A stretch of DNA of 510 nucleotides from Escherichia coli (GTDB lineage Bacteria; Pseudomonadota; Gammaproteobacteria; Enterobacterales; Enterobacteriaceae). The DNA is taken from assembly GCF_003334255.1 (NCBI RefSeq), contig NZ_QOWU01000227.1. The stretch is one strand, 5' to 3'. The first letter of the stretch is position 1, and the number at the start of each line of letters is the position of its first letter. The notes below the pieces were generated by a model that saw only the letters and a list, made by a program, of their open reading frames with translations, was not told the origin of the DNA and did no database searches. A program made the position numbers and the translations under genes. Below, in pieces: positions 1-510 of this stretch.

Positions 1-501
1 CTCACCAGAGGCTTTCGCATCGCTACCCAGAGAAACCTTCCCATTCTCCCCATCTTCGACGCTGAAACCTGTAATTTCTGTTTTTTCCAGGCCATACACC
101 TTGTTGTACACGCCACGAACAGCACTGTCTGTCAGCTTGTGAGGTGGAGTATTTCCATTTTGTTCATTTTTTTTACCCTCAGCAGTCCTTGCAAAATCTT
201 TCAGCGCCGGGTCATGAAGTGTATGGGTGATACCCTTACCTTTAACGGTCACATTACCTTCTGAATCAAATTTGAAAAGTGTCCTCTTGTCGTTTTTTTT
301 CTCTTTTACTTCGTATCTGAAGTTACCATTATCGACTGTCTTTACAACTTCATAGGTGCTGCCATATTTAACCGGTCCGCTCTTCTGCGAATCATCCTGC
401 AACACTGAATATGTACCATTCTGCGCACTCACTCCACCACTCATCACCAGAAGCCCGGCCAGAGAAGATGACAGGAGTGTCATTGTAAACTTTTTACTCA
501 T
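1..501 (-). CDS. Exported protein of unknown function with N-terminal Sec signal peptide; partial, 167 codons visible, 3' end beyond window
   Basis: Reverse-complement reading from ATG (plus-strand 'cat' at 499-501) is open without a stop for 167 codons to position 1. Translation: [167 protein letters not shown]. The N-terminus has a clear n-region (KK), hydrophobic core and V-S-A cleavage motif. All three plus-strand frames contain stops (frame 1 at 262-264, frame 2 at 140-142, frame 3 at about 63-65). Product family not recognised from memory; no search was possible. Confidence 0.8.
167..174 (-). repeat. A8 homopolymer in the coding strand (T8 on plus strand), encoding Lys110-Lys111 within G-K-K-N-E
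   Basis: Direct read: plus strand 'catttttttta' around 165-175; coding strand GGT AAA AAA AAT GAA. Confidence 0.9.
293..300 (-). repeat. A8 homopolymer in the coding strand (T8 on plus strand), encoding Lys68-Lys69 within E-K-K-N-D
   Basis: Direct read: plus strand 'cgtttttttt' at 291-300; coding strand GAG AAA AAA AAC GAC. Confidence 0.9.
424..501 (-). other. Predicted Sec (signal peptidase I) signal peptide, 26 aa, cleavage predicted after VSA, before QNG
   Basis: MSKK (positive n-region), [16 protein letters not shown] (hydrophobic h-region), SGGVSA (c-region with small residues at -3 and -1). No cysteine follows the cleavage site, so it is not a lipoprotein lipobox. The boundary is predicted by eye, not computed. 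Confidence 0.7.
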
Positions 502-510
502 TATGGATAT

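Follow-up and report, generated by a model that had tools for sequence, protein, structure and literature searches.

The 510-nt stretch of Escherichia coli DNA analysed here, called the window throughout, is almost certainly the 5' end of eibD, a prophage moron of AT-rich composition, in which a gene-wide deficit of G+C at third codon positions (GC3) is combined with an amino-acid bias specific to the window. When the window was compared with phage records by megablast, it matched positions 966-1475 of AF151675.1 on the minus strand at 510 of 510 bases. This record is Enterobacteria phage P-EibD of E. coli ECOR-9, and the matching feature is annotated as "eibD: immunoglobulin-binding protein EibD" (protein AAF63040.1). 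The two sequences show no differences, and the window takes in only codons 1-167 of the 511 codons of the gene, together with a 9-nt leader. An enteric gamma-proteobacterial host had been considered in an earlier note made from the letters alone, and the 100% identity to an ECOR-9 phage record confirms it. eibD is an already known gene, encoding an immunoglobulin-binding adhesin of the trimeric autotransporter class, for which the source paper is reportedly that of Sandt and Hill (2000), and the composition finding is an ordinary one.

The full coding sequence of eibD occupies positions 1286-2821 on the minus strand of the P-EibD record (L001) and encodes 511 aa, with 344 codons past the window. 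Only one frame is open across the whole window: it lies on the minus strand, begins with the ATG at position 501 and continues for 167 codons until it exits at position 1. The window therefore represents about the first third of eibD, as the reverse complement of the 5' end of the gene. Plus-strand open reading frames were considered as genes and rejected, all being at most 42 aa long, with 3-8 stops in each plus-strand frame. An Rfam scan of both strands of the window (E<=1) gave no match, and a search for repeats in the window returned just two-copy matches of 11-13 nt, which we judged to be chance.

The base count of the window (A118, C137, G87, T168) gives a G+C content of 224/510, or 43.9%, identical to the hand count of the earlier note; locally, the GC content drops to 0.32 at positions 251-350 and rises to 0.50 at both ends. 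As a host baseline we used 213 kb of E. coli JNEC-KY203 (four arbitrary regions and the trp region), a strain other than ECOR-9. The GC content of this sample is 50.4%, and 51.4% after removing obvious islands, so that sampled E. coli stands at 50-51% rather than near 44%, the host average that had been named as arguing against acquisition. Among 510-nt windows of the JNEC-KY203 sample, 12.7% overall and 7.1% of those in core DNA have a GC content of 43.9% or less. The 123 long host ORFs have a GC of 0.525 +/- 0.028 and a GC3 of 0.567 +/- 0.051, with a 5th percentile of GC3 at 0.472, and none of them is as low as 44% in GC or as low as 42.5% in GC3. The raw GC content is thus mildly unusual for a window of 510 nt and clearly unusual for a gene. 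With a GC3 of 0.417, eibD falls outside the distribution of host genes in the JNEC-KY203 baseline, confirming that the gene is AT-rich with respect to the chromosome, as had been supposed.

The total GC of a short window, however, mixes amino-acid composition with codon choice, and the low value might be a mere by-product of a surface domain rich in Lys, Asn, Thr and Ser, combined with short-window noise, and hence uninformative on horizontal origin. In line with such a reading, GC at second codon positions (GC2) is 0.389 in the window versus 0.497 in the remaining gene, the GC expected for the window peptide is already 47.9% versus about 52.5% for average genes, and 7% of the core E. coli windows are equally AT-rich. 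To separate the two contributions, we simulated coding sequences for the unchanged protein, with codons sampled according to E. coli (JNEC-KY203) usage. In this simulation the coding GC of the window was 44.3% observed against 47.9 +/- 1.3% expected (p=0.004), and its GC3 was 42.5% against 52.7 +/- 3.6% (z=-2.8, p=0.004). For the whole of eibD, the GC was 48.1% observed versus 52.5% expected, and the GC3 was 41.7% versus 54.4 +/- 2.1% (z=-6.1). With the protein fixed, GC3 is still 10 points too low in the window and 13 points too low gene-wide, which refutes the by-product as a complete explanation and leaves it as a partial contributor; taken as the whole account, it is very improbable. About half of the GC deficit of the window corresponds to its Lys/Asn/Thr-rich amino-acid composition and the other half to the synonymous-site deficit. 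The latter is uniform along eibD (GC3 of 0.425 within the window versus 0.413 in the remainder). Total GC is only slightly reduced when all of eibD is considered, the robust signal being at third codon positions.

Codon preferences were analyzed separately. Leucine is mostly encoded by CTG in the window (7/12, with CTT 3, CTC 1 and TTG 1), and GCG (3 of 8 alanine codons) and CCG (2 of 4 proline codons) are in use, as the earlier note had described. The CTG share of 58% does not differ from the 51% of E. coli (p=0.78), and GCG and CCG are likewise host-like. As the CTG share is indistinguishable from that of E. coli, it fits an enteric host and carries no signal of foreignness. Of the hint of horizontal transfer that had been drawn from codon preference together with low GC, the AT-richness stands, while the CTG, GCG and CCG usage is simply that of E. 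coli: this preference indicates an enteric host, not a foreign gene. Other codons do deviate: threonine is encoded by ACA in 9 of 14 cases, against 11% in E. coli (p=2e-6), and arginine by AGA or AGG in 3 of 4, against 6% (p=9e-4). Across the whole of eibD, GCA, GTT and GGT are the preferred codons. The strong over-use of the rare ACA and AGA/AGG codons argues further against a mere by-product of protein composition, as do the prophage context and the presence of the gene in less than 1% of genomes, which are independent evidence of mobility. The decisive signals are GC3, the rare ACA and AGR codons and the contrast to the flanking phage genes.

In AF151675.1, a fragment of 3.8 kb, eibD lies between orf-191D and orf-156D/orf-60D, followed by a gene similar to L0124 of 933W (L0124D). 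The product of orf-191D matches tail-fibre families of PHROGs, and homologous proteins carry a DUF4376 domain annotation. Stem-loops are annotated in the record on both sides of eibD; a terminator-like hairpin with a T-run is present just 3' of the stop codon (L001 1252-1236, coding strand), and the 363 nt of intergenic DNA upstream of the gene have a GC content of 33%. A scan of this upstream region for the sigma-70 consensus on the coding strand revealed no promoter-like site. The flanking genes of P-EibD show GC3 values of 0.585 (orf-191D), 0.673 (orf-156D), 0.567 (orf-60D) and 0.531 (L0124D).

The same arrangement was found elsewhere. In 9/9 loci examined, the tail-fibre end of a prophage or phage carries eib, with the DUF4376/tail-fibre gene on one side of it and orf-156 on the other. 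Besides P-EibD, these loci are a lambdoid prophage adjoining ompW/yciEFG/trp in JNEC-KY203 (L002), the complete phage PhiR12_3, whose 62-kb genome carries the eib cassette (L003), a prophage with an N4-gp56-type capsid adjoining rcsD in DETEC-S792 (L008), a prophage-prophage junction beside the integrase end of another prophage in JE86-ST02 (L009), a lambdoid prophage adjoining tRNA-Ser and the hya operon in 99RCEF (L010), and the cassette-bearing fragments of P-EibC, P-EibE and P-EibA (L011-L013). An inspection of the flanking sequence, as the earlier note had proposed, revealed prophage genes, a tRNA-Ser beside the 99RCEF prophage and an integrase end beside that of JE86-ST02. In the complete genomes, eib forms one continuous stretch with genes for tail fibre, gpJ, tape-measure, capsid and portal proteins. 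Across loci, eib genes have a GC3 of 0.39-0.42 (0.45 for eibA) versus 0.47-0.71 for the neighbouring tail genes (0.53-0.67 in P-EibD, and 0.47-0.71 in the JNEC-KY203 prophage and PhiR12_3).

The orf-191/eib/orf-156 cassette was observed on two phage backbones, one lambdoid, with gpJ and tape-measure genes (L002, L009 and L010), the other with a capsid of the N4-gp56 family (L008 and L003), indicating that the cassette itself moves between phage types. At four loci, the eib/orf-156(/orf-60) cassette is succeeded, at the end of the prophage, by a large gene for an S6-family (SPATE-type) autotransporter (L002 14093-18085; L008 3129-7136; L011 2366-6373, eaaC; L013 5932-9939, eaaA), so that the cargo of these prophages includes a tandem of two different autotransporter genes.

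The earlier note had considered that a gene of this composition might belong to an accessory island, a phage or a plasmid. We asked whether eibD could belong to a non-phage element, plasmid or integrative genomic island, with the phage label in GenBank being incidental. AF151675.1 is, after all, just a 3.8-kb fragment, and SPATE genes, which are typical of islands and plasmids, trail the cassette in several loci; nevertheless, the window has no match among 72,556 plasmids, the 61 places where it does match are all chromosomal, phage structural genes are contiguous with eib in complete genomes, and the cassette is carried by the complete 62-kb phage PhiR12_3. A non-phage element is extremely improbable on these data: the phage part of the earlier suggestion is supported by every context seen, and the plasmid part is not.

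The distribution of the gene is sporadic. By megablast, the window matches 18 of 5,426 complete E. coli genomes, 14 of them at a coverage of at least 80%, and one with more than 95% identity over the full length. A more sensitive blastn search raised this number to 41 of 5,426 genomes, with up to three places per genome, and in the 27 further genomes detected by blastn the match is limited to the signal-peptide end of the window. Relatives of the N-terminal domain encoded in the window were found in 5 of 50,697 phage records and in 1 IMG/VR contig. In four complete genomes, the eib prophages occupy four sites (ompW/trp; rcsD; tRNA-Ser/hya; the integrase end of another prophage). A conserved core-genome location, which would have spoken against acquisition, is thus contradicted both by the rarity of the gene and by its variable position.

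Morons have been characterized in a review as genes of the late region that deviate in composition and bring their own promoter and terminator, and the same review names EibD as a prophage-encoded factor of ECOR-9 (PMC8065619). Located among late/structural genes, dispensable in related phages and unlike its phage neighbours in composition, eibD is a classic prophage moron. The "own promoter" part of the definition is taken for eibD from the literature rather than from the present analysis. The lambdoid morons lom and bor offer the closest parallel: like eib, they encode outer-membrane or surface proteins beside tail-fibre genes and benefit the lysogen (adhesion, serum resistance), and they are AT-rich like eib, but they belong to unrelated protein families, eib being larger and modular. 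In contrast to lom and bor, eib is present as several paralogues in one strain, with four copies in ECOR-9 according to the literature. A lom gene is present in PhiR12_3 (1418-2149), with a GC3 of 0.365. Within the tail module of the JNEC-KY203 prophage, we also observed a porin gene annotated as ompC (L002 29513-30676), whose GC3 of 0.358 contrasts with 0.61-0.71 for its neighbours; this phage-borne ompC is another AT-rich moron.

We then assigned the parts of the window to the EibD protein. The last 9 nt of the 5' untranslated region of eibD occupy positions 502..510 (minus strand; on the coding strand, ...A TATCCATA ahead of the ATG), and a Shine-Dalgarno-like CAGGA lies nearly all outside the window end. 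These 9 nt belong to the AT-rich intergenic region of 363 nt. Codons 1-26 (424..501, minus strand) encode a putative Sec-type signal peptide. As read from the translation, it comprises a basic n-region containing KK, a hydrophobic core and a VSA motif of the small-x-small type, after which cleavage is predicted. The amino acids of this segment are invariant across 8 alleles (dS <=0.05), and residues 1-26 have been employed experimentally as "the EibD signal peptide" (PMC12511318), so that both the reading of the sequence and published use agree with the Sec signal peptide expected of a trimeric autotransporter adhesin.

Next comes the N-terminal domain of the head, also called NTD or "Eib region", at residues 27-157 (31..423, minus strand); it is rich in Lys, Asn, Thr and Gly and forms the variable module of a mosaic gene. 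Positions 1..30 (minus strand) encode the start of the YadA-like beta-roll head, corresponding to its first ten residues and the first head repeat. In a Pfam search with the full EibD, YadA_head repeats (PF05658) begin at residue 156 (first match 156-176), and YadA_anchor (PF03895) matches residues 453-511 (E=5e-16), outside the window but in the same coding sequence of L001; the latter match corresponds to the C-terminal YadA-like membrane anchor with four beta-strands per protomer. The passenger with head repeats, neck and coiled-coil stalk is accounted for by YadA_head and by two EibD fragments of known structure, 2XQH (residues 158-418) and 2XZR (381-442), which are both labelled "immunoglobulin-binding protein EibD" in the PDB and together cover residues 158-442. 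Of the head, only the first 10 residues lie in the window.

The NTD itself is recognized by few resources. Pfam gave no match on residues 1-155, NCBIfam gave none on the 167-aa fragment encoded by the window, and PHROGs returned just three families of unknown function (phrog_10464, 33417 and 9547). The crystal structure 2XQH is without the NTD, as it starts matching at residue 158. According to the literature, the domain has no experimental structure, its AlphaFold2 trimer models reveal a novel fold in which an antiparallel sheet is covered by two helices, and chains still form when the NTD alone is deleted (PMC7568254; PMC12511318). Our AF2 monomer model, built on an alignment of 8 sequences, has a mean pLDDT of 72.5 and a pTM of 0.65, and predicts a beta-sheet with two helices. 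A Foldseek search of this model against the PDB found no significant neighbour (best E 1.2, TM <=0.26). Matches to p32/C1QBP in Foldseek were weak and not significant, and they were not interpreted. Within the limits of a medium-confidence monomer, the model appears consistent with the published statement of a novel fold.

YadA of Yersinia is the prototype of trimeric autotransporter adhesins (type Vc) and is encoded on a plasmid (pYV). It has in common with EibD the YadA_head repeats and the YadA_anchor, and the anchor of EibD matches PDB 2LME with E=2.8e-18. However, EibD scores 106 bits against the NCBIfam YadA model, whose cut-off is 750, indicating that it is not a YadA orthologue. YadA is also without the Eib NTD, which makes up most of the window (PMC7568254; PMC12511318). 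Closer relatives are eibC and eibE, from P-EibC and P-EibE of ECOR-9, and the alleles annotated as "YadA-like family protein" in 14 complete E. coli genomes, which are found in the same orf-191/eib/orf-156 cassette and have a near-identical leader and signal peptide, a gene-wide GC3 of 0.39-0.41 and the same architecture.

Non-immune binding of IgG Fc and of IgA by EibD has been reported in the literature, and the binding sites were reportedly mapped to the stalk, i.e., outside the window, by Leo et al. in 2011. Ig binding, serum resistance, aggregation and IbrAB-dependent expression are literature-derived properties of EibD or Eib proteins, while the identity, composition statistics, prophage context, rarity and variable location of the gene come directly from the present analysis.

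By comparing the eibD region (L001 727-3772) with L011, L012, L002, L008 and L003, we discovered that conservation is distributed unevenly along the locus. The AT-rich leader of 363 nt and the 78-nt signal-peptide segment are 97-99.4% identical in 8/8 eib loci, and a sharp boundary of conservation coincides with the predicted signal-peptidase site (window 424-510 versus 1-423; L001 2744-3184; L002, L003 and L008-L012). Just past this boundary, the NTD coding region falls to 52-87% identity per 60-nt block with respect to eibC/eibE. The NTDs of both EibC and EibE are just 65% identical to that of EibD (dS 0.67), whereas from the stalk through the anchor and into orf-156 EibD and EibC are 100% identical (dS 0). 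The alleles of KY203, S792 and PhiR12_3 show the reverse: their NTDs are near-identical to that of EibD (dS 0.016-0.07, the lowest value being that of KY203), while head and stalk are divergent in 3/3 (dS 0.5-0.9). The anchor is likewise divergent in KY203 and PhiR12_3, with S792 as the exception (dS 0.13). These opposite patterns of identity show that the eib gene is a mosaic, and such patchwork alleles imply recombination between prophage copies. The mosaicism itself is clearly shown; judging from these alignments, the module encoded by the window and the rest of eibD differ in their histories.

Two T8 runs on the plus strand of the window, A8 on the coding strand, lie in the NTD. One, at 293..300 (GAG AAA AAA AAC, E-K-K-N), coincides with the lowest local GC and is a hot spot of in-frame indels among alleles; the other, at 167..174 (GGT AAA AAA AAT, G-K-K-N), adjoins a variable loop with in-frame indels of 9-24 nt among alleles. 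Two A8 tracts in 501 coding bases compare with 8 A8+/T8+ runs in 180 kb of core E. coli, and both sit at sites of in-frame indels of 3-24 nt among alleles; the tracts may be prone to slippage. No frameshifted or out-of-frame eib allele was seen among the alleles compared. In a test of positive selection on the NTD, dN/dS was 1.7-3.5 with respect to the three closest alleles and was not significant (p=0.07-0.38). The differences in the NTD are clustered in patches beside indels, and they look more like small recombination or indel tracts than like selection.

Taking these observations one step further, the eib locus could function as a module-exchange cassette, in which a conserved 5' arm and conserved 3' segments would flank the head modules, including the NTD, and allow them to be swapped by homologous recombination between co-resident prophages. 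Such an exchange would diversify surface specificity or antigenicity, and slippage at the A8 tracts could add further variation. We regard this as a speculative and rather unlikely extension of the observed mosaicism.

As an explanation of the composition and distribution together, eibD is an additional gene inserted among the late genes of a phage, between the tail-fibre gene orf-191D and orf-156D, with its own AT-rich upstream region and with stem-loops on both flanks, and it travels among strains with temperate phages, lambdoid and other. Two components make up its AT-richness. The first is the gene-wide GC3 of about 0.42, whereas host genes have about 0.57 and the flanking genes of the phage 0.53-0.67, a contrast that sets the history of eibD apart from those of both host and phage backbone. 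The second, specific to the window, is its Lys/Asn/Thr-rich NTD, including the two A8 tracts. The low GC3 may reflect an origin in, or a long residence in, an AT-richer gene pool, and the AT-rich leader may be a regulatory target.

The AT-richness may also be no relic of a donor but be kept by selection, for example, through xenogeneic silencing of the H-NS type until an IbrAB-like activator relieves it, or result from a mutational bias of phage accessory DNA. Consistent with this, the leader at 33% GC is conserved at 97-99.4% although the coding regions differ with dS up to 0.67, and other morons of the same prophages are alike in composition (lom with a GC3 of 0.365, and the phage-borne ompC with 0.358). 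IbrB has been reported to activate Eib expression, and expression in lysogens is reported to depend on the IbrAB island. We consider maintenance by selection or mutational bias possible, although doubtful; it is compatible with horizontal transfer, and it addresses the persistence of the composition, not the mobility of the gene.

In conclusion, a composition flag raised from 510 bases correctly singled out a prophage cargo gene. The gene, its prophage location and the architecture of its protein have been in print since 2000, and a crystal structure is available for part of the protein; the biological loose end at the window is the function of the NTD and its mosaic exchange among alleles. 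If the proposed exchange of modules is true, it may represent a selected mechanism of diversification and may go beyond the earlier description by Sandt and Hill.
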